NCBI GenBank assembly: GCA_948467675.1
Contig: CAOKFI010000001.1
Span: 25,159-89,158 of the forward strand
Length of the DNA: 64,000 bases
Reading direction: 5' to 3'
Source of the DNA: an uncultured Porphyromonadaceae bacterium
GTDB taxonomy: Bacteria > Bacteroidota > Bacteroidia > Bacteroidales > Muribaculaceae
Part shown: positions 1,887 to 42,232 of the stretch, piece after piece
Position numbering within the stretch: the stretch's first letter is position 1
Layout: every line of letters begins with the position of its first letter
Notes under the pieces: generated by a model
Databases searched by the model: none
Told to the model about the DNA's origin: nothing
The model's input: the letters and a program-made list of their open reading frames with translations, nothing else
Made by a program: the position numbers and the translations under genes

Positions 1887-2468
1887 ATGGATATGCTGAA
1901 CCGTAAATTCATTCTGGCGAGTGGATCGCCACGGCGCCGTGAACTTCTTGGCATGCTTGGCGTTGACTTTACTGTAGATACCTCGCGTCAGGTAGACGAA
2001 AGAATTCCGGATGGAGTGTATATAGAAGCCGAAAAGATTCCTGAGTATCTGTCGCAGGTCAAGGCCGAGGCGTATCTGTCGGATTTGACTGACGATAATG
2101 TGCTTGTCACAGCCGACACGGTCGTAATTCTCGATGGCGATGTGATAGGTAAACCGGTCGATGAAGGCGATGCCAGACGTATGCTACGCCGGCTGTCCGG
2201 CCGTGTCCATAAAGTGGTTACCGGAGTGACTGTGGTTTCGTCCGGGAAGCGGAAGACTTTTTCGGAGACGACGGAGGTAGAGTTCGCTCCCATTTCCGAT
2301 GGCGAGATCGATTATTATGTCGATACGTTCCATCCGGTCGATAAGGCCGGGGCATACGGTATACAGGAATGGATCGGGGCTGTCGCCGTAAAAGGGCTGA
2401 GAGGCAGTTATTACAATGTTATGGGACTTCCTGTCAACAGGCTTTACCGCGAGCTTAAAGACTGGTAG
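1887..2468 (+). CDS. maf: Maf family nucleoside triphosphate pyrophosphatase
   Basis: 193 aa with the ILASGSPRRRELL N-terminal signature and KAGAYGIQE motif. Confidence 0.9.
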   Translation: MDMLNRKFILASGSPRRRELLGMLGVDFTVDTSRQVDERIPDGVYIEAEKIPEYLSQVKAEAYLSDLTDDNVLVTADTVVILDGDVIGKPVDEGDARRMLRRLSGRVHKVVTGVTVVSSGKRKTFSETTEVEFAPISDGEIDYYVDTFHPVDKAGAYGIQEWIGAVAVKGLRGSYYNVMGLPVNRLYRELKDW

Positions 2469-3609
2469 GCTGTTGCTCTACGGCCAATGTCATTCTGAAT
2501 CCCGGATGTGGCGGAATGAGGTTGAGTGTGCCTGCGCACAGCCGGAATCCATCAGCGATGAAATTGTCGGCATAAACCTCATTCGGAGCATATCTTACGG
2601 ATAGGATTCCGTGTCTTCCTTCGCTCATAATCCGTTTGTATAATTTATGGGCAACAATACCCATGGTCATTCTTAAATTGATTTCTACAGCTGGATTTAT
2701 GAGTGGCTCTGAGCCGTCGGACGGACGATATACCATCATATCGACTCCGAAATATCCGTTGTAGTGGTGGTGTATGCCTGTTCGGGCAAGAACCGATGCG
2801 GTTTCGGCTGCCGTCGATACGACACATTGTTCATCGATATGGCGGCCTATGCATGCGAGCAATTCATCGTCGGAGGCGACATGATTGCCGGAATAAGCGG
2901 TAGTTCCGTGTGAATTGAAAAACATGGAGTAGCCGATATGTCTTATTCCATCGTAACTGGCATGGTATAACGATGCAAAATCAACGACCTTGTCAAGAGC
3001 CGGTTCGAGCATTACAGATCCCTGATGTCTTATGATTCCTTCGGCCTGGCGCAGGATCTGTTTGCGAGGTATGGCCGAGCAGTCCACAACGCCGCGTCCG
3101 CTGCTTGACCATGGCGCTTTCATGAAAAAATGCGGATGGGCTGTGGCAAATCGTTCGAGATCACTGATATTTCTGGCTTCTATCGGCGTGGATGGCAACC
3201 GGTAGGCGAGCCGGGAGCGCAGTTTCTCCATCAGTATCGCTGCCGTACGTCGATGGCTTAGATCACGCATCTTTCTGATTTTGTCATCCCATTTTGTCGG
3301 ATCTATGGCGACCCCCATCTTAATGTACTGGCGTAGTGCGTGCATTGAGAATCCCCATGGCGCAGGTCTGACATGTGGCTCGGAGTCGTACAGAGCCGCG
3401 GGCAGGCTGAATAGCTGCCGCCGGTTTTCTATCCATTCTGGACTTGCATGAGGGGCATATATCATGTCGCCGTCGGTATCGGCATACCATAGAGGTAGCG
3501 CGGCTCCGGCATCGTGGAAATCGCGCACTGCGCGTGTCGGAGTATAATTGCAGTCGGTCTGGCCGAGTGCTATATCATTTTCGGGATTGAATAGAAACAG
3601 GCGTCTCAT
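2455..3609 (-). CDS. conserved hypothetical protein, weakly ATP-grasp-like
   Basis: 384-aa ORF with clean coding potential. The KAPWSSSGRGV and FGVDMMV motifs resemble ATP-grasp nucleotide-binding elements. The function call is tentative. Confidence 0.6.
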   Translation of the reverse strand: MRRLFLFNPENDIALGQTDCNYTPTRAVRDFHDAGAALPLWYADTDGDMIYAPHASPEWIENRRQLFSLPAALYDSEPHVRPAPWGFSMHALRQYIKMGVAIDPTKWDDKIRKMRDLSHRRTAAILMEKLRSRLAYRLPSTPIEARNISDLERFATAHPHFFMKAPWSSSGRGVVDCSAIPRKQILRQAEGIIRHQGSVMLEPALDKVVDFASLYHASYDGIRHIGYSMFFNSHGTTAYSGNHVASDDELLACIGRHIDEQCVVSTAAETASVLARTGIHHHYNGYFGVDMMVYRPSDGSEPLINPAVEINLRMTMGIVAHKLYKRIMSEGRHGILSVRYAPNEVYADNFIADGFRLCAGTLNLIPPHPGFRMTLAVEQQPTSL

Positions 3610-3680
3610 TTACAGTCGTAATGGCAAGATAAAGTTACGCAATTATATCGAAGTGTGCAGTCTTATACATGAAATTTCAT

Positions 3681-3688
3681 TAACTTTG
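3681..3688 (+). promoter_or_regulatory. Bacteroidota -7 promoter box (TAnnTTTG) upstream of fabD
   Basis: TAACTTTG lies 36 nt upstream of the fabD ATG in a divergent intergenic region. Confidence 0.45.
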
Positions 3689-3723
3689 TGGCACTTTTAA
3701 TCATAAAGTAGACTATTTTTAAG

Positions 3724-4602
3724 ATGAAAGCATTTGTATTCCCGGGCCAAGGCGCCCAGTTCGTAGGCATGGGCAAGGACCTCTACGACAACAATGCCGA
3801 AGCTCGCGCTATGTTCGAGAAGGCCAACGAAATATTGGGTTTCCGCATCACAGACCTCATGTTTGAGGGAACCGACGAAGATCTTAAGCAGACCAAAGTG
3901 ACACAGCCCGCAGTATTTCTTCACTCTGTAATTCTGGCTAAATGTCTTGGCGATGAATTCGCGCCCGATATGGTGGCCGGTCATTCGCTCGGTGAGTTCT
4001 CTGCACTGGTTGCCGCCGGAGCATTGAGTTTCGAAGACGGACTGAAGCTCGTAGCCGCCCGTGCCAACGCGATGCAGAAGGCTTGTGAGCTGACTCCATC
4101 TACAATGGCGGCCGTACTTGCGCTTCCCGACGAGACCGTAGAGGAGATTTGCGCCGGAATTGAGGGCGTAGTGGTATGTGCCAACTATAACTGCCCCGGA
4201 CAGATCGTTATATCCGGCGAAGTTCCTGCTGTCGACGCTGCATGCGAAAAACTGCTTGCCGCAGGCGCGAAGCGCGCTCTCAAACTCAAGGTCGGAGGTG
4301 CGTTCCATTCTCCATGTATGGAACCCGCCCGTGCGGAACTTGCCGAAGCCATACAGGCTACAGAGTTCAAGACCCCGGTATGTCCGGTATATCAGAATGT
4401 AGATGCACTGCCTCATACCGACCCCGCAGAAATCAAGGGTAATCTCGTAGCTCAGCTTACCGCACCTGTACGTTGGACACAGACAGTGAAGAATATGGTA
4501 GCTGACGGAACTGACGAATTTGTCGAGGTTGGTCCCGGCAAGGTTCTCCAGGGACTTGTAGCCAAGATTGCCAAAGGTGTTCCGACCTCCGGCCATCAGT
4601 AA
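3724..4602 (+). CDS. fabD: malonyl CoA-ACP transacylase
   Basis: 292 aa with FPGQGAQ and the active-site GHSLGEFSA motif. Confidence 0.95.
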   Translation: MKAFVFPGQGAQFVGMGKDLYDNNAEARAMFEKANEILGFRITDLMFEGTDEDLKQTKVTQPAVFLHSVILAKCLGDEFAPDMVAGHSLGEFSALVAAGALSFEDGLKLVAARANAMQKACELTPSTMAAVLALPDETVEEICAGIEGVVVCANYNCPGQIVISGEVPAVDAACEKLLAAGAKRALKLKVGGAFHSPCMEPARAELAEAIQATEFKTPVCPVYQNVDALPHTDPAEIKGNLVAQLTAPVRWTQTVKNMVADGTDEFVEVGPGKVLQGLVAKIAKGVPTSGHQ

Positions 4603-4632: not shown

Positions 4633-5586
4633 TCAGAAAGGCTTCCGGTATTTATCGGGAGCCTTGTCTTGTAATATGCTCAGGTAAGAAGCGTAGCGTG
4701 ATTGGGCTATGCGGTTGTTGTCCAGAGCTTCGAGTACAGCGCATCCGGGCTCGTGGGTATGGGTGCAGTCGCTGTATCGGCACTCTGCTCCGGTCTCGAA
4801 TATCTCAGGAAAGAAATGCGCCACCTCGTTGGTGTCGAAGTCGATGGTGCCGAACCCTTTTACTCCGGGGGTGTCGATTATGTAGCCGCCGTCAGGCAAC
4901 GGAAACATCTGGGAAAAAGTAGTAGTGTGCATGCCGGTATCGTGCGATGCCGATACTGTGGCGGTGCGCAGGTCGAGCCCCGGCAGCAGTGCGTTGATCA
5001 GAGAGGATTTGCCTACGCCGGAATTGCCTGACATGAGGCTTACATTACCGTCAAGCATATTCCGCAATCTGTCAATCCCTTCTCCGGTTCTGGCCGATGT
5101 ATGTATCACATCATATCCAATAGAGTGGTACAGATATGTGACAGCCTCGAGCAATTCCCGGTCACAATCGTCTGTCAGCAGATCGGTTTTGTTGATGACT
5201 ATGGTCGCGGGAACCCTATAGGCCTCGGCTGTGGCGAGAAAGCGGTCTATGAATGTGGTCGATGTCGACGGATGCGCAAGTGACGCTACCAGAAAAGTTC
5301 TGTCGATATTGGCCGCGATGATATGAGCCTCTTTAGAGAGATTGCTGGCTTTACGTATTATGTAGTTGCGTCTTGGTTCGATGGCTGTAATGAATGCCGT
5401 CCCTTCGGGGGTGGGGGAGATCACGACTCGGTCTCCGACGGCTACCGGATTGGTGGTTCTTATTCCTTTAAGACGGAAATTGCCTTTTATCTTGCAGTTG
5501 TATTCCGCACCGTCATCGGTACGCACCATATACCAGCTTCCTGTGTTTTTTATTACAAGTCCATTCATCGACAACAAATTTACCAA
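4633..5586 (-). CDS. rsgA: ribosome small-subunit-dependent GTPase A
   Basis: 317 aa with an OB-fold N-terminus, circularly permuted GTPase (NKTD then [12 protein letters not shown]), and the zinc motif [16 protein letters not shown]. Confidence 0.93.
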
Positions 5587-5824
5587 TAAACAACTGATTA
5601 ACCAACTTTGATATGTAAATTTTGGTATGTGTGAACTAATAAGTTGTAAATTATTGTATTATGCTTGCCTGAACCAAATAGGTGGGAAACTTGTTGGGTA
5701 TATAACGTGAGAATATGCAAAATTTTTGTAAATTTGCAAAAAATTCTTACGGAATGTTATGACGCATGTATGCTGTCTATATTGGAATTTTATGCCACAT
5801 ATTATAAACCTAAAACATTAGAAA

Positions 5825-6043
5825 ATGAACACAGAAACTATTGGAAGCTGGGCAGGGCTTGTGTGGAATGCCCTCAATGAGGCTGAAGCGCTTGGAACCA
5901 AACAGATCAAAAAGATCACAAAGCTGAAAGACAAGGAGCTTTATGCCGCTTTAGGATGGTTGGCCCGTGAGGATAAGGTCAACATGATCCCTTCTGAAGA
6001 GGATCCCAAAGAGCTGATCGTATCGCTTGTACAGGATAAGTAA
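5825..6043 (+). CDS. small winged-helix DNA-binding protein (DUF2582-like)
   Basis: 72 aa. The pattern IGSWAGLVWNAL...ALGWLAREDKV is typical of small wHTH proteins. A TAAATTTG box lies at 5729-5736 upstream. Confidence 0.7.
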   Translation: MNTETIGSWAGLVWNALNEAEALGTKQIKKITKLKDKELYAALGWLAREDKVNMIPSEEDPKELIVSLVQDK

Positions 6044-6855: not shown

Positions 6856-8544
6856 TTATTTGCGAGGTATTTTTAGCTTTTGTCCGATTTGGATCTTGTC
6901 GCCGGCTGTCGGATTGGCTTTCCGTATATCGTCGGCGCTGACTCCGGGATATTTTTTTGCGATTTTCCAGTAGCTTTCGCCGCGTTTTACAGTATGGATT
7001 GTAGTGCCTCCGCTATTGTTGTTCGCTTTCTTGGGGGTGGTGGCGGTTTTCTTCTGTTCCTGTTTTGGCGATACTGTTTTGGGTTCTGATTTCTTTGGCT
7101 CTGATGCCTGTTTGCCGGCGGATACTGTAGAAGCCGTTTCCACTGATTGAGCTGTAGACACCGTTGTTGCAGCCGAATTATCATTAACCTGGCTGTCCGA
7201 TATGGCTGCAGTGGCTGTTGTCTTTTCTGCGACAGACAGTTCGTTGGCCGGTTCGTATGTGTGGATCTTGATGTTTTGTCCGCGTTTTAGCTTTGTACTC
7301 TTCAGTCTGTTCCACTTCTTGATATCGGCTACTGTCACTCTATATCGCGATGCGATCTTCTGCATGGTCTCACCTCTGGCAACTTTGTGTGTCTTTACCA
7401 CGAGCCTTGTTCCGGTAACCAACGCTGTATGATCGGTAGGCTCTACTACTGTCCGCCGTACATATCTGGACTGATTGTTGCTGAGGATAGAGTCTTCGCT
7501 CATGATATAGGCATAGACCAGTTTCGACGGCAGGCGTAATGCGTATGAACGTACATCGCCGGGGATTATATCTTTGCGATATTGCGGGTTCAGAGCGCGT
7601 ATCTCCTCGATAGGGATATTGAGTACATTGGCTATCTGGTTGAAATGCACACGTTTGTTGATGTGTACCGTGTCGGTCAGTATCGGACGTCGAGCCAATG
7701 CGGGACTTATGTTATGGCAATTGTAATAGTTCATTACATAGTTTGCCGCTATGAAGGCAGGCACGTATCCGCGTGTTTCGGCCGGGAGGTTGTAATATAT
7801 CGACCAGAAATCTTTCTGTATGGCGGCGGCATTGGGGTTGTCCATATCTATGCCGGCTCTGCGCAAGGCTTTGTTCACATTGCCGGGGCCGCAGTTATAT
7901 GCTGCTATAGCCAGAGACCAGTCTCCGTATATGTCATGCAGCTGGCGGAGATATTTTGCTGCGGCCTGAGTCGATGTCACGGGGTCGCGGCGTTCATCTA
8001 CGAGTGTGTTTATCTCTAACCCGAATCCCCTGGCGGTAGGGAGCATAAACTGCCATAGGCCTGCAGCGCCTGCACGCGATACGGCGTCGGGATTAAGGGC
8101 CGACTCGATAACTGGCAGATACCGCAGTTCCAGGGGGAGCCCTTCGCGTTCGAGAGCTTCTTCGAAAATAGGCATATAATAAAGACTCATTCCGAGCATG
8201 TTTTCAACCAGGCTGCGGCGCCTTTGGGTATACATGTCGATGTGAGACCGTACTATCTGGTTGAAAGGCATCTCGATGGTCGTAGGGATCTGGGCGAGAC
8301 GTTGTATCATGACCTCATCGGTGGCGTCGACGTCAGACTCACTGTCTGCTCTGGAGTCGAGCACTATGTAGTTTTGCAGATACCAGTTCTGCATCATGCG
8401 GTGTACGTCGGTTTCAAAACTTTCGGGATAAACGATCGCCGTGTCGGTGATCGTTTCGCTCAGATTTAGTATACCCTGTGATGCTTTTGCGCAGACGGGA
8501 GCTATAAGTATTGACGATAATATGAGTAGCTTGCTTAGTGTCAT
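6856..8544 (-). CDS. lytic murein transglycosylase with two LysM domains (MltD-like)
   Basis: 562 aa with the SLT motif ESALNPDAVSRAGAAGLWQFM and two LysM repeats (HKVARGETMQKIASRY..., HTVKRGESYWKIAKKY...) separated by a low-complexity linker. Confidence 0.9.
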   Translation of the reverse strand: MTLSKLLILSSILIAPVCAKASQGILNLSETITDTAIVYPESFETDVHRMMQNWYLQNYIVLDSRADSESDVDATDEVMIQRLAQIPTTIEMPFNQIVRSHIDMYTQRRRSLVENMLGMSLYYMPIFEEALEREGLPLELRYLPVIESALNPDAVSRAGAAGLWQFMLPTARGFGLEINTLVDERRDPVTSTQAAAKYLRQLHDIYGDWSLAIAAYNCGPGNVNKALRRAGIDMDNPNAAAIQKDFWSIYYNLPAETRGYVPAFIAANYVMNYYNCHNISPALARRPILTDTVHINKRVHFNQIANVLNIPIEEIRALNPQYRKDIIPGDVRSYALRLPSKLVYAYIMSEDSILSNNQSRYVRRTVVEPTDHTALVTGTRLVVKTHKVARGETMQKIASRYRVTVADIKKWNRLKSTKLKRGQNIKIHTYEPANELSVAEKTTATAAISDSQVNDNSAATTVSTAQSVETASTVSAGKQASEPKKSEPKTVSPKQEQKKTATTPKKANNNSGGTTIHTVKRGESYWKIAKKYPGVSADDIRKANPTAGDKIQIGQKLKIPRK

Positions 8545-21734: not shown

Positions 21735-21752
21735 TAATTTTGTGTAATTTTG
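21735..21752 (+). promoter_or_regulatory. tandem TAnnTTTG -7 boxes, promoter of the riboswitch-led operon
   Basis: TAATTTTG occurs at 21735-21742 and again at 21745-21752, immediately upstream of the riboswitch aptamer. Confidence 0.5.
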
Positions 21753-21759
21753 TCGGCGT

Positions 21760-21955
21760 AATGGTTGCTCTGTCGTGAAGAGTCGCGGCTTTAAGGAGCA
21801 TCAAAAGGGAACGGGGTGAGATTCCCCGACAGTACCCGCTGCTGTAATTCCCGCTCACCGGTGGTGAGCAGACGAGTGTCGCAATATGTCACTGGCCGTA
21901 TCAAGGCCGGGAAGGCGTGACTACTCCGGGATAAGTCAGAAGACCTGCCATATAC
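21760..21955 (+). promoter_or_regulatory. cobalamin (B12) riboswitch aptamer
   Basis: Conserved elements AAAAGGGAACGGGGTGAGATTCC, CAGTACCCGCTGCTGTAA and GTCACTGG...GGGAAGGC are present, plus the B12 box AGTCAGAAGACCTGCC at 21934-21949. The boundaries are approximate. Confidence 0.88.
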
Positions 21956-22045
21956 GCCACTATAAGATTCGCCTACGGGATTATGGGCACAGGTCTCTGA
22001 TTAGAACATCCGTTCGAGATTGTTTTATCGTATATACACGTATAT

Positions 22046-26486: not shown

Positions 26487-29400
26487 ATGAGAATTAGACA
26501 TTTACTTTTATCTGCGGTAATTGCTGCAGGTGCGGTACCCGACAGTACTGCGACAGTAGATCTTGATGCTATCAGGAACTGGGCCGGCACAGGCGAAAAG
26601 CGAGCCGCTCTGGTAATTGATTTTCATGATGAGAAAGGCAACGATCAGGCTCTGGTGTGGGGTTACCGGTGGGACGGTAACGCATCGGGTGAGGATATGA
26701 TCCGTGCGATTGCCCGTTCGAGCCGTGTACTCGTGCTGATGACTCAGTATACGGGCAATATGGGTTCTACTGTCAATGGTGTAGGCATAGCGGCAGACCG
26801 TAATGAACTGTTAAGCTATCTGCGTTATGATTTCGATGGCGCGAGCAGTTCCGACAAAGTTGCGTTCGGATATTATGAACCGGAAACAGTCATGGGACAG
26901 ACTTCAGCTCCAGGTGCTAAAACTCCTGAACTCGTGCAATCGGCGATAGATGCCGCACGTATGACAGGTATCATAGATCATCCTCTCAATTTTTTGCGTT
27001 ACGGTTATGCGGCATACGATTATGATTTCTGGCAGTTGGATCCGGTAGTCGCCGATAGTCCCAACTATCGCTGGGAAGCGGCCTGGTACAAGGGGTACTG
27101 GCAGTTCTTTACCGGTGACGCCGACGGGGATCTGTCGTACTCCGGGCTCGGAATGTCGAGTGTGCAGCTATCGGACGGAATGGTAAATATGTGGACATTC
27201 GCGCCTGATTTCCAGCACAAGGATATGAGTCCGATAGACTATACAATAGAGGATTTCGGAGAGGAAATGACTCCGGGTCAGGAAGAAGCCTGCGCCATAG
27301 ACCTGTCGAAAATCCGGTTCTGGGTAGGAGACGGCGAGAAAGAAGCTGCTGTGGTACTTCAGTTCAATGATGGCAAAGGCCCTGAGAATCTGGTTTACGG
27401 TTATCGCTGGAGCGGCGGCTATGATAAAAGCTGTCAGGATGTGATCAAGGACATAGCCGAAGCTGATCCACGTATGACTCTTTCGGATAACGGGACGGTT
27501 ACGTATGAGTGCAATGATGACGGCAATCTGAACTATAACGACCATAATGCGACCAACGGAAACTGGAACGGCTATCTGCGCCGTAAGGTAGATACGGAAT
27601 ATCTGCGTGTGGCTGATATGAAGAAAGTTTTCGTGGCACCCGGTTCGGTATTTGTATATGCAAATTCCACTGATGACACTGTAGAACTTCCGTTTACTCT
27701 TTTCCGTCCTGCTTCCGACGACACACAGATCATATATCTGCCTGAGACACTGACTTACAGTATCAACGATACCCAGTGCGTGATACCAGCTTTCATACAG
27801 TATACACCGGATGTGGTGTCGCATGCGTCGACTGCGACGTGGGCTGTAGAGGGAGCTGCAAACGGTCTGCTTAAACTGACGGGCACCCAGATGCTATGCA
27901 AGGTAACACATAATGAACTGAAGCCGACCGAAGGTGATGTGACACTTAAAATCCGTGTGAATTACGAAGGGGGGAATGCCGACTATGTGTCCTCCAATGT
28001 ATGCCGTCTTATCGTCGCTGCGCCGGAGCGTCCCATAACATCGATGTCGTTTGAGAGTGCGACTATGGAGGTGGCTCTGAACAAGGCAGTCGTTAACCCG
28101 CTGGTAACAGATCCGGAAAATCCGACATATACGAAGGTCACATACACTACGTCGGATGCGTCGGTGATCAAAGTGAACTCCTACAACAATACTCTGACAG
28201 CGACTACGACTCCCGGTACTGCTGTCATTACAGCGACCTACGACTATGATCCGGAAATCAAGGCTGAGTTTACTGTAACTTCCAGGCTGATGAATCCTGT
28301 GACGGATATAAAGCTGCCGTTCGAGGGCAATGATGTGACTATCCCGTATAAGGGTGTTTTTGCCCTTCATGTATCTGTCGAGCCTGACGATGCCGATATC
28401 GCGGACTATAATATTGAGATCGCCGATCCGGATATAGTATCTGATTTCGGCAAAGGCAAATATGCATACGTGACTCTCGTCGCCCATAAACCGGGAGCAA
28501 CAACCGTGACCTTGACTGCGGCTGACGGATCCGGAGCTGAACGTGTGCTGAATGTGACTGTCGAGAAACCGGAGGACCAGGATCTGGACTTTACCAGCGG
28601 TACGTTCATTCTTAATGAAGAGTGGTTTGGTCATACCAACGGTTCGATCAACTATGTAGATGCTGACGGCATGATGCATTACCGTGTGGTGGGTTCCCGC
28701 AATGACGGACTGTCATTCGGTGCCACTTCCTGCTACGGTATGGTATGGGGCGGCAAGCTGTATGTCATGTCAAAGCAGCATCAGGACGGTGGCGATCCCA
28801 ATACCGGCGGCGGCCGTCTGGTCGTAGCTGATGAAAAGACTATGAAGATCGTGGCCAGATTCGACAATATAGGCGGAGGAGACGGTCGTGCCTGTGTAGG
28901 TGTAAACGAGTCGAAGATATATTACGGCTCGACTGCCGGTATCTTTACTTTCGATGTCGATAATCTGACCACAGGTTCTCTCATAGAGGGGACAGCCGGC
29001 AAGAACGCTTATTCAGGCCAGATAGGTGACATGGTATGTACCGGAAGCCGAGTATATGCCGTACAGCAGTCTACTGGTGTGCTGGTAATCGATACAGAAT
29101 CCGACTTGCTGATAAAGAAGATCGATGACACTACTGTGCAGGGTATAGCCCGTTCGATGGATGGAAATGTCTGGGTTGCATCCAAATCGAAGCTCACATG
29201 CATAGATCCTGCTACTGCTGAGATAATAGAAACCGTGGATCTGCCGTCAGGTCAGACCATAACCTGCGACTGGGGTTCATGGCGTCCGACACAGTTCTTT
29301 GCGTCAACTACTGAAAACCGTCTGTTCTGGGGCTTCACATCGTGGGAGATCGGAACCGATATAGCGACTGTGGCAGACAATACTTATGTGACGTCAGTCA

Positions 29401-30134
29401 AGGAGCTTCCGGGTGAAAATAACGGTATGCGCTACGGTACCTCCCGTCTGGATGAACGTACCGGCGAGGTGATAGTCATGACCACGAAGTCGTACGGACT
29501 CGATGCGGTGTTCAATACTTATCATTGGGTAGATTATAAGACAGGCGAGGTGAAAAACACTATAGTACCACAGGACTATTTCTGGTTCCAGGCGATGCCG
29601 GTTTTCCCTGATGCCCATGATCCTGAGATCTCACTTGCCAGGATCGATCTAAAGCCGTCGGATGAGCCGCTTGAGATAGACCTGGCCGATATCGTGACAG
29701 ACGGCGATGTCAATTTCCATCCGATGTCAATCGAGTGCCGTGTGGATGCTCCCGATAACGATGTCGTTTCGATCGATAAAGACGGCGGTCTGCTCCGTGT
29801 GTCTCCTAAAGCGGAAGGCGAGACTTCGTTTGTTCTGACAGCCCAGTCCAACGGCAAGGTGGTTTCGGCACGGATTCCGGTGACGGTTTCCAACACTACC
29901 AGTGTGGATGGTATCTCTACAAATATACATTCGATAACAGCAGCAGACGGATTGTTGACGGTCAAGGGATGTGCCGGATATGATATTGAGATCATATCGA
30001 TGTCGGGGCGTGCGGTATGTGCGTTCGGATGCGGTTCCGATCATGAGACTATACGTCCGGTCGTAGAGCCAGGTATCTATATCGTACGTGCAATGTCAAA
30101 TGAAGATACAATAATTGCTAAAGTAAAACTGTAA
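26487..30134 (+). CDS. 1215-aa multidomain cell-surface protein, T9SS cargo
   Basis: It has a signal peptide and two copies of an unknown module (from aa 23 and aa 270). Big_2-like Ig domains follow at ~aa 520-700. A DUF5074-like beta-propeller runs from F702 (TFILNEEWFGHTNGSINY) to ~aa 1042. A T9SS type-A CTD spans 29907-30131 (..GIYIVRAMSNEDTIIAKVKL). Confidence 0.8.
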   Translation: MRIRHLLLSAVIAAGAVPDSTATVDLDAIRNWAGTGEKRAALVIDFHDEKGNDQALVWGYRWDGNASGEDMIRAIARSSRVLVLMTQYTGNMGSTVNGVGIAADRNELLSYLRYDFDGASSSDKVAFGYYEPETVMGQTSAPGAKTPELVQSAIDAARMTGIIDHPLNFLRYGYAAYDYDFWQLDPVVADSPNYRWEAAWYKGYWQFFTGDADGDLSYSGLGMSSVQLSDGMVNMWTFAPDFQHKDMSPIDYTIEDFGEEMTPGQEEACAIDLSKIRFWVGDGEKEAAVVLQFNDGKGPENLVYGYRWSGGYDKSCQDVIKDIAEADPRMTLSDNGTVTYECNDDGNLNYNDHNATNGNWNGYLRRKVDTEYLRVADMKKVFVAPGSVFVYANSTDDTVELPFTLFRPASDDTQIIYLPETLTYSINDTQCVIPAFIQYTPDVVSHASTATWAVEGAANGLLKLTGTQMLCKVTHNELKPTEGDVTLKIRVNYEGGNADYVSSNVCRLIVAAPERPITSMSFESATMEVALNKAVVNPLVTDPENPTYTKVTYTTSDASVIKVNSYNNTLTATTTPGTAVITATYDYDPEIKAEFTVTSRLMNPVTDIKLPFEGNDVTIPYKGVFALHVSVEPDDADIADYNIEIADPDIVSDFGKGKYAYVTLVAHKPGATTVTLTAADGSGAERVLNVTVEKPEDQDLDFTSGTFILNEEWFGHTNGSINYVDADGMMHYRVVGSRNDGLSFGATSCYGMVWGGKLYVMSKQHQDGGDPNTGGGRLVVADEKTMKIVARFDNIGGGDGRACVGVNESKIYYGSTAGIFTFDVDNLTTGSLIEGTAGKNAYSGQIGDMVCTGSRVYAVQQSTGVLVIDTESDLLIKKIDDTTVQGIARSMDGNVWVASKSKLTCIDPATAEIIETVDLPSGQTITCDWGSWRPTQFFASTTENRLFWGFTSWEIGTDIATVADNTYVTSVKELPGENNGMRYGTSRLDERTGEVIVMTTKSYGLDAVFNTYHWVDYKTGEVKNTIVPQDYFWFQAMPVFPDAHDPEISLARIDLKPSDEPLEIDLADIVTDGDVNFHPMSIECRVDAPDNDVVSIDKDGGLLRVSPKAEGETSFVLTAQSNGKVVSARIPVTVSNTTSVDGISTNIHSITAADGLLTVKGCAGYDIEIISMSGRAVCAFGCGSDHETIRPVVEPGIYIVRAMSNEDTIIAKVKL

Positions 30135-30136
30135 TC

Positions 30137-31603
30137 ATGAACGTTACAAAAACCTTAATATCGGGAGCCATTATGATGTGGCTTCCGGTATTATCGGCCG
30201 ACGCGGCCGATATCGATTATACCGCTGGTATATTTGTTGTCAACGAAGACTGGTATGGACATCAGAATTCGACAGTGAACTATCTTCTTCCTGACGATCC
30301 GGACGGGAACTGGTGGCACTATCGTGTGATCCAGACCGAGAATCCCGGTAAGGAGCTGGGATGTACCAACCAGTACGGTGCTATCTGGGACGGCCGTTTC
30401 TATCTGATCGCGAAACAGGACAAGGATCCGGGCGCTTCTATAACCGGAGGACGCATAACGGTGGCCGATGCCTCGACAATGCAGATCGTGAAACAGCTAC
30501 AGCTTATAGATCCGTCGGGCAGTCAGTGCGATGGCCGTGCATTTGTCGGGGTGAGTACCACTAAGGGCTATGTCTCGTCGAGTAACGGTGTCTGGATTCT
30601 GGATCTGACGGCTCTGGAAATTACCGGACAGGTGGATGGAACCGGCAATTCGTCAGGCTCTCTCTATCTGGGTCAGGTCGGAACCATGGTGCTGGCCGAA
30701 GGAAAAGTATTTGCCGTGCATCAGCAGAATGGACTGCTCGTGATAGATCCGGAGTCAGACAGTGTGATAAAAGTCATAGATATGGATATTGTAGATGATG
30801 CTGTCGAGAATGCGACCGGCAAGCGTCCGACCAAGCCGTCCGGCATAGGATCGACAATAGTGCGTTCGAAGGACGGCTCCCTTTGGATCAATCTGGCCAC
30901 GAATGTGTCAGGGGGCGGTAGCGCACTGCCGTATCTGCTTCATGTCGATCCTGCCACACTTGATACAGAGGTCGTATCGCTCTCTGGCGATGGGATATAT
31001 CCGCCTTCCAACTCATGGTATGCGTGGACTCCGGATCCGTTCTGCGCGTCGTCGGAGACAAACACTCTCTATTGGTGCGGCGGAACGAGCAGTTGGTTTT
31101 CAGGCAAGATGATATTCCGTTATGATATCGATGCCGGTATATGTACGAAGATTGCCGATTTCAATACATTGGACGGAAACTGGCAGGTGTACGGCTGTTC
31201 GTTAGGCATACACCCGGATACCGATGAACTGTATGCGTCGCTGTATCATTCGTTTGGGGACAATACCTATATTGTGCGCCGTTTTAATAATGAGGGCGAG
31301 GTGATCCGGGACTATGAAATGATAGCGAACTACTGGTTTCCGTCACTTTTCGTGTTCCCGCAGGCCGGAGGTATCTCCGGTATAGATGCGCTGACTCCGG
31401 CGCAGGGCGGATACGTCGCCGTTTCGGGAGATAAGATCATGTTGCATGGGTTTGCCGGATGCGATGCCGCTGTGTATACGTTGTCGGGACAGTGTGTGTG
31501 CCGTATCCCTGTCACCGATGATATTCAACAGATCCCGGCGGCTCTTATTTCCGGCATCTATGTTGTACGAGTGGGCAATACCGTCAGCAAGGTCGTGATA
31601 TAA
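30137..31603 (+). CDS. 488-aa beta-propeller protein (DUF5074-like), T9SS cargo
   Basis: It has a signal peptide and the motif GIFVVNEDWYGHQNSTVNY. Its propeller is paralogous to that of the 1215-aa protein. A T9SS CTD spans 31373-31600 (..GIYVVRVGNTVSKVVI). Only 2 nt separate it from the upstream stop. Confidence 0.8.
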   Translation: MNVTKTLISGAIMMWLPVLSADAADIDYTAGIFVVNEDWYGHQNSTVNYLLPDDPDGNWWHYRVIQTENPGKELGCTNQYGAIWDGRFYLIAKQDKDPGASITGGRITVADASTMQIVKQLQLIDPSGSQCDGRAFVGVSTTKGYVSSSNGVWILDLTALEITGQVDGTGNSSGSLYLGQVGTMVLAEGKVFAVHQQNGLLVIDPESDSVIKVIDMDIVDDAVENATGKRPTKPSGIGSTIVRSKDGSLWINLATNVSGGGSALPYLLHVDPATLDTEVVSLSGDGIYPPSNSWYAWTPDPFCASSETNTLYWCGGTSSWFSGKMIFRYDIDAGICTKIADFNTLDGNWQVYGCSLGIHPDTDELYASLYHSFGDNTYIVRRFNNEGEVIRDYEMIANYWFPSLFVFPQAGGISGIDALTPAQGGYVAVSGDKIMLHGFAGCDAAVYTLSGQCVCRIPVTDDIQQIPAALISGIYVVRVGNTVSKVVI

Positions 31604-31622
31604 ATCAGCCTCTTACATATTA

Positions 31623-31665
31623 CCACATATAAAAGCACGGATAATCTCCGTGCTTTTATATGTGG
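31623..31665 (+). terminator. rho-independent terminator of the B12 operon
   Basis: A 19-bp perfect stem ccacatataaaagcacgga / tccgtgcttttatatgtgg with loop taatc lies 20 nt after the stop. Confidence 0.8.
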
Positions 31666-31884
31666 CATGAGGCCATTATATTTCAGCAATTTTATTTATT
31701 GATGAATGCTACATCCATCAATAAACTAATATAGGTCATGTTGAATTTGTAAATTATTTATTACAGTGGATAGTGCTGTTGTAATTCTTATTCTGATTTT
31801 GGAGTAACGGAGTGATGAACATATTTGTCTATTTGCAGGTGAATATGCAAATAGAATAAAAAGTATAATAGAATGCATTATAAA

Positions 31885-31916
31885 AATTGGCGTATATGCC
31901 AATTTTATTATCTTTG
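31885..31916 (+). promoter_or_regulatory. candidate promoter (TATCTTTG at 31909-31916) with adjacent palindrome aattggc-N6-gccaatt (31885-31904)
   Basis: A TAnnTTTG box lies 59 nt upstream of ATG 31975, and a 7-bp-arm palindrome lies immediately upstream. This suggests an operator for the HTH protein. Confidence 0.4.
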
Positions 31917-31974
31917 TAGCGAATTTTATCAACAAAGGAAGTGGCAGCAACACTTAAAATATGGCATTCTAACT

Positions 31975-32466
31975 ATGAATAAAAAAATCAAAGAATTCAT
32001 GAAGCGGGATTTCCAGTCAAAGGCCCTAATTGTGGATACAAAAATGGTGAAAGTAGAAGCTCCTGATGGAGAAGTATTTACTTTGTGCTGCGATATTGGG
32101 AAATATATTAGTGAGGAAACCCGAGAATATATGCTTCATATGCTTGAAGCAATATTCGATAAGAATTTCTCTATGGATAAGGAACAAATGGTTAATGCTA
32201 TTTGGCGTGATTCTTTTGTTTATGGAGTTTCTTTCTTAGGTATCAATTCAGGTGACAGACATGGGGAAAGAATAAGAATAGGCAATAAAATTAAGCAAAT
32301 TCGTGAGGAAAGAAATATGGATGCACGAGATTTAGCTAAGCTGGCGAATATTGATGCAGCAAATCTTAGTCGGATTGAAAAAGGAAAATATTCTGTTGGA
32401 CTTGATATCTTATCTAAAATTGCAGCCGTTTTAGGGAAAAAAATTGATTTTGTTGATTTAGCATAA
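31975..32466 (+). CDS. XRE-family HTH protein with unknown ~100-aa N-terminal domain
   Basis: ATG 31975 is preferred over 31873 because the promoter box lies between them. The C-terminal HTH_3 motif is IGNKIKQIREERNMDARDLAKLANIDAANLSRIEKGK. The protein is 163 aa. Confidence 0.7.
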   Translation: MNKKIKEFMKRDFQSKALIVDTKMVKVEAPDGEVFTLCCDIGKYISEETREYMLHMLEAIFDKNFSMDKEQMVNAIWRDSFVYGVSFLGINSGDRHGERIRIGNKIKQIREERNMDARDLAKLANIDAANLSRIEKGKYSVGLDILSKIAAVLGKKIDFVDLA

Positions 32467-32472
32467 GTCGTT

Positions 32473-33522
32473 ATGGTGGATATAGATGATTTCAAAGTCG
32501 AAGTGATTTGTGAATATAAAGGTGAAACGTATTCAGTACGTGATAATGGTGCTATTATGAGACATCATAAGTGTAATTCACGGTTAAGACCTTTGGATGG
32601 CAAATGGACTTTTGGCATTAAGAACAAAGATAATGGATATATGTTTTTTGCTTCAAATGTCCGTGTTCACCAAGTTGTGGCGACTGCTTTCTGGGGGCAT
32701 ATGAAAGAGGATGGTATGGTCGTTGATCATAAAGATACTAATAGGTGTAATAATAGAGCTGAAAATTTGCATTGGGTGACAAAACTCGAAAATGTTTTGA
32801 ATAATCCGATTACTCGTCGCAGAATAATTAATATATGTGGAAGTATAGTTGCCTTTCTTGAAGATCCGACTTTGTTGCGAGAAAGTACAGCAGATTATAA
32901 TTTCACATGGATGCGTACAGTATCTAGAGAGGAGGCTGCAAAATGCAAGGCGAATTTAGAAAAATGGAGTCAAGAAGATGCAGATTTTATTTCTACTGTG
33001 CGCGGTAATGGTATTGGTGAATGGATATTCAGTGACATACGTCCGATGAGACAAAATAATGATATGGATCAAGGAATTGCAAGATCTGGATTCCCGATAA
33101 AACAAAACAAAGAACTTGAGAAAAAAGCTATGTCATCATTAATAGAGTCATTAACTGCCAATGCTATGCAACAGTATTGGCTAACACCTACTGAGTTTCC
33201 CTTATGTCCGATTGATATTTTGTCATTGGAAACTTACTACTCATCTTTGGAAAAAGGAAAAGTTTTTTCAAAAAATATTCATGGTGCACAAACAATCATA
33301 GAGATTGCTATATCTAATGATAATAAGGAGTTGTGTGTTGCTACTCATAATCCTGAAGGCATAAAGCATTGGTATATAACATACGTATATATATCAGACG
33401 ATAAGTATATTCATAAAAATGGAGGCTCTTTTTTTGACGAAAATGGAGTATTAAAAGAGATAACATTATTTCAAGGTAAAGAATGGACTGGTGGTGATTG
33501 TATAGATGATTACTGCTTATAA
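32473..33522 (+). CDS. NUMOD4/HNH (HNH_3) endonuclease fused to unknown C-terminal domain
   Basis: 349 aa with the NUMOD4-like GETYSVRDNGAIMR and the HNH core VHQVVATAFWG...VDHKDTNRCNNRAENLHWVTKLEN. It starts 6 nt after the upstream stop. Confidence 0.75.
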   Translation: MVDIDDFKVEVICEYKGETYSVRDNGAIMRHHKCNSRLRPLDGKWTFGIKNKDNGYMFFASNVRVHQVVATAFWGHMKEDGMVVDHKDTNRCNNRAENLHWVTKLENVLNNPITRRRIINICGSIVAFLEDPTLLRESTADYNFTWMRTVSREEAAKCKANLEKWSQEDADFISTVRGNGIGEWIFSDIRPMRQNNDMDQGIARSGFPIKQNKELEKKAMSSLIESLTANAMQQYWLTPTEFPLCPIDILSLETYYSSLEKGKVFSKNIHGAQTIIEIAISNDNKELCVATHNPEGIKHWYITYVYISDDKYIHKNGGSFFDENGVLKEITLFQGKEWTGGDCIDDYCL

Positions 33523-33992
33523 ATAGAACTACATAATGTTAGTCATTTTGATAGATTTCTAATAGATAGGTTGATATAAACATTTAATCAAATGTGTTAA
33601 ATTTAGATTTATTATGTGTAGATTTCGCATACACAGAAATGTACATACTTTTGGTGGCTTGTGATATAGAATCGTCATAGGAATTGTGATATTTGTTATG
33701 GATGTCGGGATGTGGAGTCCGGTGCATTTCTATAGCGTGTTGGAATCAGGATCTTCGGCTCCGCGTTCTTGCGTTGGGTCTATGAATGTGTGATTTCGCC
33801 ACATGCTAACTGATTGAGCTACACACTAAATCGGCATGTCTTTAGGCGAGGCTCTATATCAGTATTGCTGAGACACTGGTCTCAAGCGTACTTATTTGCT
33901 TAATGAAATAACTTGGGTGCAGAACAGATCGCCGCTACGATTATGGTAGAACGGACTGTAGGAGCAGTAGTAGGAGCAGACAAGGCTATTGA

Positions 33993-34730
33993 TCAATGAT
34001 TGAATGTGGTGTCGTTGAGGGGGTGGAATGCGGCGGCGTGGCGGCGGCAGTCGCGCGATGAGAGGTAGGTGTCGATGGCATCGGCGTGACGGTGGTTGTG
34101 GAGGTCGGTGCCGATGAAGTCGGCCATTCCTTTTTCGATAAGCCATTCGGCTATGGCTTTCTCTTCTTTGCCGTAATATCCGGCTAAGCTAAGAAGGTTG
34201 ATCTGGAACATTGTGCCTGCGGCATGTATGGCTTCGTAACGCTTGCGGTTGGAGGAGTGGTAGTATCGGTAGCGTTCCGGATGTGCGAGTATCGGTCTGA
34301 AGCCTTTTACTTTAAGATCGAACAACAGCTGGTCGATATTCCACGGTTCCTGAATGAATGAGTTTTCGACGAGCAGATAGTCGTGAGCGATCGGTATAAG
34401 GATCTCATTTTCGACGTGGGTCAGAAAATTATCATCCATGCGGTATTCGGCACTGTAGCTGACCTGAATGTCGATGTCTTTAGAGATCAGTGCGGATTTC
34501 AGTTCCGCAAACGCAGGTGCGAGTGTGGCCGGTGTGTTCTCGAATGTGTCCTGAGTGACATGCGGGCTGGCAATAATGCGTTTCAGTCCCCAGCCCTGCA
34601 TGCGCCGGACTAGTTCGGCAGACGTGTCCGGATCAGGTGATCCGTCATCGACTCCCGGTATTATGTGGCAGTGGATGTCGGTGGTGAACCATAATTGCAT
34701 CGGTTCCTTTTTCTTGAATATGCTAAACAT
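33993..34730 (-). CDS. PHP-family tyrosine-protein phosphatase (CpsB/YwqE-like)
   Basis: 245 aa with the N-terminal metal-binding motif DIHCHIIPGVDDGS. Confidence 0.85.
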   Translation of the reverse strand: MFSIFKKKEPMQLWFTTDIHCHIIPGVDDGSPDPDTSAELVRRMQGWGLKRIIASPHVTQDTFENTPATLAPAFAELKSALISKDIDIQVSYSAEYRMDDNFLTHVENEILIPIAHDYLLVENSFIQEPWNIDQLLFDLKVKGFRPILAHPERYRYYHSSNRKRYEAIHAAGTMFQINLLSLAGYYGKEEKAIAEWLIEKGMADFIGTDLHNHRHADAIDTYLSSRDCRRHAAAFHPLNDTTFNH

Positions 34731-42180: not shown

Positions 42181-42232
42181 GTTATGTCGGTATTTTAGGA
42201 TGCAAATATAGCAAATATTTGCGTGCGGGTTG

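Follow-up and report, generated by a model that had tools for sequence, protein, structure and literature searches.

What does a two-gene cassette, made up of an XRE-type helix-turn-helix (HTH) regulator and an HNH nuclease, do in a bacterial chromosome when no mobility genes lie beside it? The question is raised by an AT-rich islet at 31666-33750 of a 64,000-nucleotide stretch from an uncultured Muribaculaceae bacterium (assembly GCA_948467675.1, contig CAOKFI010000001.1, positions 25,159 to 89,158); the whole stretch was analysed and is called the window throughout. We found that the islet DNA is foreign, that its two genes are a conserved portable operon with a dedicated regulator, that both genes are under purifying selection, and that three lineages, with at least three chromosomal copies among them, have kept the cassette although no mobility genes lie beside it. 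The pair is a regulated nuclease cassette that is more widespread than a single islet could show. Judging from sequence features and from analogy, it might serve as a tightly repressed nuclease for defence or mobile-element competition, a role to which we give somewhat less than an even chance.

Composition, genes and promoter of the islet

A sliding-window analysis placed the GC content at 0.28-0.38 in fourteen consecutive 300-nt windows (31650-33749) and at 0.45-0.56 on both sides. As a whole the islet has a GC of 0.334 versus 0.496 for the 64-kb window, and the GC at third codon positions (GC3) is 0.26 in both of its genes, compared with 0.52-0.63 in four flanking genes. An earlier note, made from the sequence by eye, had described an AT-rich islet of foreign composition, and the measured GC, GC3 and non-native codon usage agree with that description, except that the ~57% GC claimed for the flanks was too high (measured ~50-52%). 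Both open reading frames (ORFs) lie on the same strand, and the tight linkage that the note had reported is real, with the regulator stop codon at 32464-32466 and the nuclease ATG at 32473, i.e. a 6-nt gap. The promoter and the parts of the two genes are as follows (aa, amino acids; AF2, AlphaFold2; pLDDT, predicted local distance difference test).

31886..31903, plus strand: candidate palindromic operator ATTGGCGTATATGCCAAT, of the form ATTGG-N8-CCAAT, which overlaps the cassette promoter in its −33 region
31909..31916, plus strand: Bacteroidetes-type −7 promoter box TATCTTTG, directly 3′ of the palindrome
31941..31960, plus strand: conserved 5′-leader element GTGGCAGCAACACTTAAAAT, near-invariant in an alignment of six cassettes
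31975..32466, plus strand: regulator gene, 163 aa (Pfam HTH_3 at 5.6e-13; AF2 model with pLDDT 83.8)
32473..32805, plus strand: HNH catalytic part of the nuclease, aa 1-111, of the I-HmuI-class beta-beta-alpha-metal type, with D85, H86, N98 and N107
32806..32997, plus strand: conserved helical middle region of the nuclease, aa 112-175, helical in the AF2 model and conserved in the homologue alignment
32998..33132, plus strand: disordered linker of variable length, aa 176-220 (pLDDT <50 for residues 174-220)
33133..33522, plus strand: C-terminal alpha+beta domain (CTD) of the nuclease, aa 221-349 (129 aa), plus stop codon (pLDDT >90)

The second gene (349 aa; 32473..33522 on the plus strand, stop included), whose AF2 model (pLDDT 79.9) splits into the four parts listed, encodes an I-HmuI-class HNH DNA endonuclease with all catalytic residues intact. 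Pfam assigned aa 64-108 to HNH_3 at 9.9e-17 (60.8 bits, cutoff 24.8), the profile built from 24 homologues matched I-HmuI (1U3E) at 3.8e-9 with the D-H...N...N residues aligned, and Foldseek matched the model to 1U3E at 7.6e-4 with 32% identity over 117 columns. D85, H86, N98 and N107 are invariant in the 24 homologues and align with D74, H75, N87 and N96 of I-HmuI; in addition, the PADLOC HEase profile covers aa 17-111 and PHROG 59 (an HNH family) aa 8-111. The gene had been called a 'NUMOD4/HNH nuclease'; its HNH part stands, while the NUMOD4 part was not reported by Pfam at E≤0.1. Residues 8-60 fall instead within two profile matches, PHROG 59 and PADLOC HEase, and within the stretch aligned structurally with 1U3E. 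Homology searches returned ~2,100 nuclease proteins, among which the linker varies in both length and sequence, and the public record names the islet protein a 'hypothetical protein'. The helical middle region accompanies the HNH core in 69 of 75 representatives. A sister branch on IMG/VR contigs (L118, L120 and L121, with HNH ORFs from ~5974-5986) keeps core and helical middle, and a different C-terminus replaces the CTD.

The CTD (aa 221-349) had no match in Pfam, none to a PDB sequence by profile and none to PDB or BFVD structures by Foldseek; weak OB, SH3 or CHAP-like matches were not significant and were not relied on. A CTD profile run against 1.84 billion proteins identified the domain in 547 representatives, of which the best 147 were classified by architecture using local HMMs. 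The same HNH core was present in 75 of these 147, about ten carried two CTDs in tandem, and the remainder were short; no other catalytic domain was fused to a CTD among them. The CTD as a promiscuous sensor on varied effectors was therefore rejected, the domain occurring in this set only with the HNH core, in tandem or alone. The tandem members are 439-497 aa long (P0242, P0244, P0245, P0248, P0253, P0256, P0325, P0342, P0354, and L122 at 2429-3901). Some of the short proteins come from true stand-alone genes (137-142 aa) carried by plasmids of Agrobacterium, Rhizobium and Legionella, such as L177 4977-5390 on the Agrobacterium plasmid CP039921.1 and L178 4938-5366 on the Legionella plasmid NZ_CP016875.1. 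The stand-alone CTD plasmids inspected were typed as conjugative; one of the genes adjoins a DUF262 type IV restriction gene and ParDE, and the other is oriented divergently to a gene for a CGNR zinc-finger protein. Fused and stand-alone forms share the invariant residues Q233, W236, C245, P246, Y255, H314, F321 and K328, and this invariance across both forms suggests a defined pocket rather than just a surface for the DNA backbone.

The longest ORF of the regulator gene would give a protein of 197 aa from 31873; it was rejected in favour of the ATG at 31975, because the close homologues are all 162-166 aa long and because this ATG is where the alignment of the upstream regions leads. The protein consists of an N-terminal domain (aa 1-92, nt 31975-32250), alpha/beta in the AF2 model, and a C-terminal XRE-type HTH (aa 95-160, nt 32257-32454). 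Foldseek superposed the modelled HTH domain on ClgR, C.BclI, C.AhdI, C.Esp1396I and HipB, and PADLOC matched the regulator with generic HTH models only. The N-terminal domain found no fold match in PDB, nor did hhalign detect a relation between it and the nuclease CTD. The search gave 964 homologues of the regulator. In the set of regulators compared between cassettes, the HTH half is the most conserved part (59-91% identical), with the N-domain falling to 22-24%. Named simply a 'helix-turn-helix transcriptional regulator' in the public record, the protein is what the earlier note had made of it, an XRE-HTH protein with an uncharacterised N-terminal domain. The note had likewise taken the second domain of each protein to be uncharacterised, and neither has a match in Pfam, NCBIfam, PADLOC, PDB or BFVD.

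The upstream region is conserved as well. In Bacteroidetes the −7 promoter consensus is TAnnTTTG, and TAnCTTTG is kept in all six aligned cassettes, as are both half-sites of the palindrome, ATTGG and CCAAT; ATTGGCGTATATGCCAAT has its sole perfect match within the 64-kb window at this site. The promoter region aligns at 72.6% nucleotide identity with the copy on a Chryseobacterium plasmid included, and the promoter block forms the sharp left edge, at ~31881, of all homology between copies. No stable RNA fold was detected in the conserved leader (z-score −0.23). From the position of the palindrome, and by analogy, we infer that the XRE protein probably autorepresses the operon.

Carriers, selection and host locus

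At least 23 contigs, obtained from different samples, encode the exact HNH protein, each time in the present context. Nucleases 65-77% identical to it occur in Bacteroides elements, on prophage-like contigs and in two other chromosomal islets, with the copies in conjugative or mobilizable elements of Bacteroides at 75-77%. The order in those elements is an HTH gene for 163-166 aa, the HNH gene and then a gene for a 226-aa secreted protein, and the cassettes have tra genes (TraG, DUF4134) on one side and, on the other, a block that comprises relaxase, MobC, excisionase-like HTH_17 and integrase genes. The closest relative at the DNA level, 81.6% identical over 31882-33520, belongs to a mobilizable element with relaxase, MobC and integrase. 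On one prophage-like contig the two-gene unit stands alone (L011:5231-7090, 82% nucleotide identity), directly upstream of the phage tape-measure gene, and another copy lies between UmuD/UmuC and primase. On a Chryseobacterium oryzae plasmid, a cassette with a 5-nt gap and a 38.5% identical HNH protein lies near the replication genes, between the genes for an Mrr-STAND NTPase and SoFic. The two other chromosomal islets have no mobility genes within 6-7 kb; one holds a truncated third gene, the other the third gene and ~150 nt of a fourth. In the Bacteroidales loci inspected for composition, all four (L011, L105, L179 and L107) had a cassette GC of 0.37-0.39 versus 0.47-0.58 for the locus.

Taken over 15 distinct contexts, the regulator accompanies the nuclease in ten, down to an HNH identity of 35%, and a full-length regulator without the nuclease was never seen. 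The expectation that the two genes would co-occur elsewhere has thus been confirmed in many unrelated genomes and replicons. The remaining five contexts hold regulator-free HNH homologues at 36-48% identity: in a prophage, antisense between structural genes; next to a type I restriction-modification (R-M) system and a NERD protein; between a PD-(D/E)XK nuclease and an MmeI-type R-M enzyme with an FRG protein; next to a GHKL ATPase and a serine recombinase; and in a MobV-relaxase element (L113), behind a different protein of 208 aa that has no Pfam match and is HTH-like by eye only. Recognised defence genes adjoin five of the 15 contexts; the defence neighbourhoods comprise the type I R-M system with NERD, Mrr-STAND with SoFic, the PD-(D/E)XK nuclease with the MmeI-type R-M enzyme and FRG, the GHKL ATPase, and MutH/Dcm at a distance of ~4 kb. 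The plasmid collection yielded one full-length pair besides the stand-alone CTD genes, and the phage collection a distant match to the core only. That no described system matches the pair, as the earlier note had supposed, agrees with the searches made here, in which PADLOC gave no system model and the literature searched in full text held no description of it.

In many copies the nuclease gene is followed by one for a protein of 225-226 aa with a signal-peptide-like N-terminus (L011 7074-7754, L105 7092-7772, L179 8074-8751), which has no assigned family, is 81-90% identical between the copies compared and is absent from the phage-borne ones; tblastn found no trace of a remnant of it in the 64-kb window. 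It may be separate cargo. Directly upstream of another chromosomal cassette, a GC-rich 123-nt tandem repeat (L107 4379-5067; 5.7 copies, 88% matches) is translated by the gene caller as a 226-aa ORF. The prophages L183 and L184, with a solo HNH gene at 7001-8110 and 4834-5943, respectively, share the genes to its left and a 75-aa gene to its right and then diverge, a pattern reminiscent of a published study in which nuclease genes of phages are reported to lie preferentially where blocks of genetic exchange meet (PMC10448857). Several independent metagenome assemblies of the present locus break at 33743, at 33960 and at 31943-31977 (contigs L019, L021 and L022-L024), positions that correspond to the islet's right border or to the conserved promoter, which fits either a cassette common to several taxa in the same samples or a low coverage of AT-rich DNA.

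The regulator gave pairwise dN/dS values of 0.06-0.15 and the nuclease values of 0.05-0.18, chromosomal copies included; the linker of the nuclease is the one relaxed part (0.5-0.75).

At its borders the islet meets native DNA without any sign of an integration site. Its surroundings comprise the following features.

31623..31665, plus strand: hairpin, terminator of the upstream operon (19-nt arms, 100% complementary, 5-nt loop)
31666..31881, no strand assigned: left AT-rich orphan segment (GC 0.29-0.37)
33523..33750, no strand assigned: right AT-rich orphan segment, delimited by the GC profile, with recovery by ~33750

The islet boundaries given in the earlier note were correct, the GC drop starting just 3′ of the hairpin and native composition being regained at the end of the right orphan segment. 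Its 'B12-operon terminator' at the left border was also correctly named, because the DUF5074 gene before the hairpin closes an operon headed by a cobalamin riboswitch (21745-21966, plus strand; Rfam RF00174, 93.9 bits), whose 3′ part is formed by two DUF5074 genes (26487-31603); the hairpin follows the second of these and marks the left edge of native composition. On the other side, the cpsB/PHP phosphatase gene starts at 33993 on the minus strand, beyond the right orphan segment. Neither orphan segment was matched by blastn in ~150 related loci; the left one contains an inverted repeat that forms a 14-nt hairpin (31695-31725). As claimed, the islet holds no integrase, transposase or tRNA according to the ORF list and ARAGORN, the latter finding no tRNA or tmRNA in the entire 64-kb window. 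Rfam at E≤1 gave nothing in the islet except chance miRNA-like matches to the terminator hairpin, and flanking direct repeats were at chance level only, the best being 22 nt at 73%. An insertion at a tRNA or att site was rejected on these grounds, i.e. a tRNA-free window, chance-level edge repeats and no integrase ORF, and a tRNA-like string seen by eye near 33800 found no support. With no integrase, relaxase, att repeats or tRNA target at the islet edges, the locus does not classify as a conjugative or mobilizable element.

A comparison of the junction in related genomes had been proposed in the earlier note, and its outcome was mixed. The nearest relative found, L187 (CpsB 78% identical; 59-64% for matches named Muribaculaceae), is syntenic at 75-81% nucleotide identity over ~8 kb, from window position 42183 to 34011, and this synteny stops exactly at the 3′ end of cpsB (window 34011 / L187 8720). 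Beyond it, a gene for an outer-membrane beta-barrel protein and an unrelated 493-aa gene replace both the islet and the B12/DUF5074 operon. L187 lacks the cassette next to cpsB, but it lacks the left DUF5074 neighbour too. The islet therefore marks a break in synteny, and the comparison offers no clean empty site. Synteny was lost altogether in a second relative (P0393), and a CdsA-based genome scan for an empty site gave only relatives at ≤54% identity, without conserved synteny. A presence/absence polymorphism among strains was looked for as well and rejected, the islet being present in every contig with identical CpsB that reaches far enough into the junction. One strain variant, L018 (GCA_948964345.1), is 99.3% identical to window 31401-34100 and has ~20 extra bases (2720 versus 2700 aligned columns).

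Possible functions of the cassette

The neighbourhood evidence leans towards defence or conflict, and this reading is favoured because defence genes lie nearby, because the cassette travels as cargo in mobile elements, because its regulator is conserved, and because the nickase NixI, which is compared below, sets a precedent. The cassette would then be a portable two-gene operon, borne as cargo by Bacteroidota conjugative and mobilizable elements, plasmids and prophages and acquired horizontally. The XRE protein would bind the palindrome and repress the operon, so that a nuclease with genotoxic potential is hardly expressed, and its N-terminal domain might sense a trigger or contact the nuclease. 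Upon relief of repression, the nuclease would nick or cut DNA chosen by the CTD, the target most likely being the DNA of an incoming phage or a rival mobile element, and the cassette would act as a defence or exclusion module. The benefit of such a module is proposed as the reason why intact copies persist in chromosomes without mobility genes.

Several points weigh against a role in defence. The association with defence genes amounts to five of 15 contexts, a count that has no background control; PADLOC-DB v2 gives the nuclease only the generic 'HEase' and no system-specific model, the CTD matches nothing in the Pfam, PDB and BFVD searches, and no methyltransferase accompanies the cassette. 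To our knowledge, most other known members of the catalytic class are selfish homing endonucleases. We can name no trigger, target or self-protection mechanism, the putative link between operator and repressor is drawn from sequence and analogy, and the invariant Q, C, H and K of the CTD could have a role other than DNA recognition. A further-reaching version, namely that the two genes make up a nuclease-based system of immunity or exclusion that has not been described before and is widespread among gut Bacteroidota, that its CTD is a new fold acting as a sensor or second active site and that the nuclease might drive a recombinase-free spread, seems to us possible and rather doubtful.

The catalytic class raises the question of whether the cassette is instead a selfish free-standing homing endonuclease gene with its own repressor, in which case the nuclease would cut a site in cassette-free relatives of the carrier, repair would copy the cassette in, and the chromosomal copies would be dead ends or products of illegitimate repair. 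The nuclease has the catalytic core of the I-HmuI/HNH_3 homing-endonuclease class, and its layout of catalytic domain, flexible linker and CTD, sometimes with tandem CTDs, is of a kind that resembles modular homing endonucleases. Regulator-free homologues sit in prophages at positions typical of such genes, i.e. antisense between structural genes or at the edge of a mosaic block; the cassette itself occurs as a sharp-edged two-gene unit (L011:5231-7090) and in unrelated contexts without a recombinase, and its AT content exceeds that of each host locus apart from the plasmid. Homing, however, needs homologous flanks, and the contexts seen (chromosome, plasmid, conjugative element and phage) are non-homologous; nor was a cassette-free allele with a matching junction found among the relatives examined. 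A dedicated and strongly conserved regulator is not usual for homing endonuclease genes, and purifying selection is strong on both genes in the chromosomal copies. Two of these copies carry adjacent element DNA, i.e. the third gene and part of the fourth, and therefore look like fragments of larger elements and not like the outcome of precise homing. Homing is on balance an unlikely explanation.

The arrangement of the operon would also suit a toxin-antitoxin-like addiction module, in which the XRE antitoxin represses the operon and neutralises the HNH toxin via its N-domain, so that loss of the cassette would kill the cell, the carrier would be stabilised and the pair would outlive the decay of the element. 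The putative antitoxin gene comes first, the gap to the next gene is 5-8 nt or replaced by an overlap, and the promoter holds a conserved palindrome that is a candidate for autoregulation; the HTH resembles the domains of HipB-type and MqsA-type antitoxins, and MqsA has an extra domain plus a C-terminal HTH, a layout like that of the regulator. Both genes are intact in each of the three independent chromosomal copies, although in two or more of these the element genes next to them are lost, truncated or fragmented, and one copy is on a plasmid near the replication genes. Divergence of the N-domain also tracks that of the nuclease C-terminus (Spearman 0.79-0.83), a correlation confounded by common ancestry. 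Yet the nuclease is found without the regulator in five of the 15 contexts and is therefore not intrinsically lethal alone, which argues against a toxin-antitoxin pair of the obligate kind. Known type II toxins, moreover, do not resemble an HNH_3 enzyme of 349 aa and several domains, and no NCBIfam or PADLOC toxin-antitoxin model reaches its threshold. We regard addiction as quite improbable.

Least probable of all, at a very low chance, is a neutral relic, i.e. a leftover element or recombination fragment that is intact because recent and has no role in the host: the entirely unameliorated composition does suggest a recent arrival, the sampled contigs are all nearly identical, the AT-rich orphan flanks look like debris and the islet lies at a synteny breakpoint, yet nothing is damaged in the ORFs, the promoter, the candidate operator or the catalytic residues, two other independent chromosomal copies likewise hold both genes intact beside truncated or fragmentary element genes, and the chromosomal copies compared with each other give dN/dS values of 0.06-0.18.

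Should the cassette indeed function in defence or exclusion, it would be a compact, widespread and so far unannotated addition to the immune repertoire of gut Bacteroidota. The analysis also highlights two protein domains without structural or family assignment, one of which is also found on proteobacterial plasmids, and the repeated survival of the two genes in chromosomes offers a test case of host benefit versus addiction versus self-propagation.

Comparison with known systems

The regulator invites comparison with the control (C) proteins of R-M systems. Its HTH superposes on C.BclI, C.AhdI and C.Esp1396I at 1.7-2.2 Å over 59-67 residues, and the PADLOC model 'Control_protein' matches it at 4.2e-10. 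The layout is also similar, with the regulator gene directly upstream of a nuclease gene, probably co-transcribed with it, and a palindrome in the promoter. The islet regulator differs in its additional 92-aa N-terminal domain, and the nuclease is of HNH_3 type and not a typical type II enzyme. A C-protein-controlled R-M system was rejected, because the methyltransferase is absent from both the islet and the conserved cassette.

With the antitoxins HipB, MqsA and HigA the regulator shares the XRE HTH, an extra domain beside it and a bicistronic operon, whereas its partner is a large multidomain HNH endonuclease that exists also without the regulator. The HipB, MqsA and HigA models scored far below their cutoffs and covered the HTH domain only. 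The pair does not belong to a curated type II toxin-antitoxin family, there being no curated model that it matches at threshold and the would-be toxin being kept without the antitoxin in five of 15 contexts.

Type IV enzymes such as McrA and the EVE-HNH protein VcaM4I combine, like the islet nuclease, an HNH domain with a separate recognition domain and have no methyltransferase. The islet HNH belongs, in contrast, to the HNH_3 homing-endonuclease subfamily, and a type IV HNH restriction enzyme was rejected since the CTD matches no SRA, EVE, YTH, ASCH, SBD or winged-helix domain in Pfam or by fold. Ambrosia, which likewise includes an XRE and an HNH gene, is a different system of five genes (XRE, HNH, methylase and two-component regulators).

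The closest structural relative is I-HmuI (PDB 1U3E), the intron-encoded HNH nicking homing endonuclease of phage SPO1, which has the same core with the D-H...N...N residues corresponding residue for residue, and in each of the two proteins a separate module comes after the nuclease domain. What follows the core in the islet nuclease is, however, unrelated, and consists of the helical region, the disordered linker and the 129-aa CTD; its gene, moreover, is not intronic, comes with an XRE regulator and is also found on conjugative elements, plasmids and chromosomes.

For the reading as a nuclease serving in conflict between mobile elements, NixI is the best functional analogy. This I-HmuI-like HNH/N nickase of the Vibrio cholerae satellite PLE is an anti-phage effector against ICP1, is toxic when overexpressed and is ~10% identical to I-HmuI (PMC9410903). 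NixI is likewise an I-HmuI-like nuclease on an integrative mobile element, and the proposed likeness to the islet nuclease is one of function. NixI differs in having neither an XRE partner nor such a CTD, and its expression follows induction of the satellite. If the defence or exclusion reading is true, the islet nuclease would be the second case after NixI of a homing-endonuclease-type HNH enzyme recruited for mobile-element conflict.

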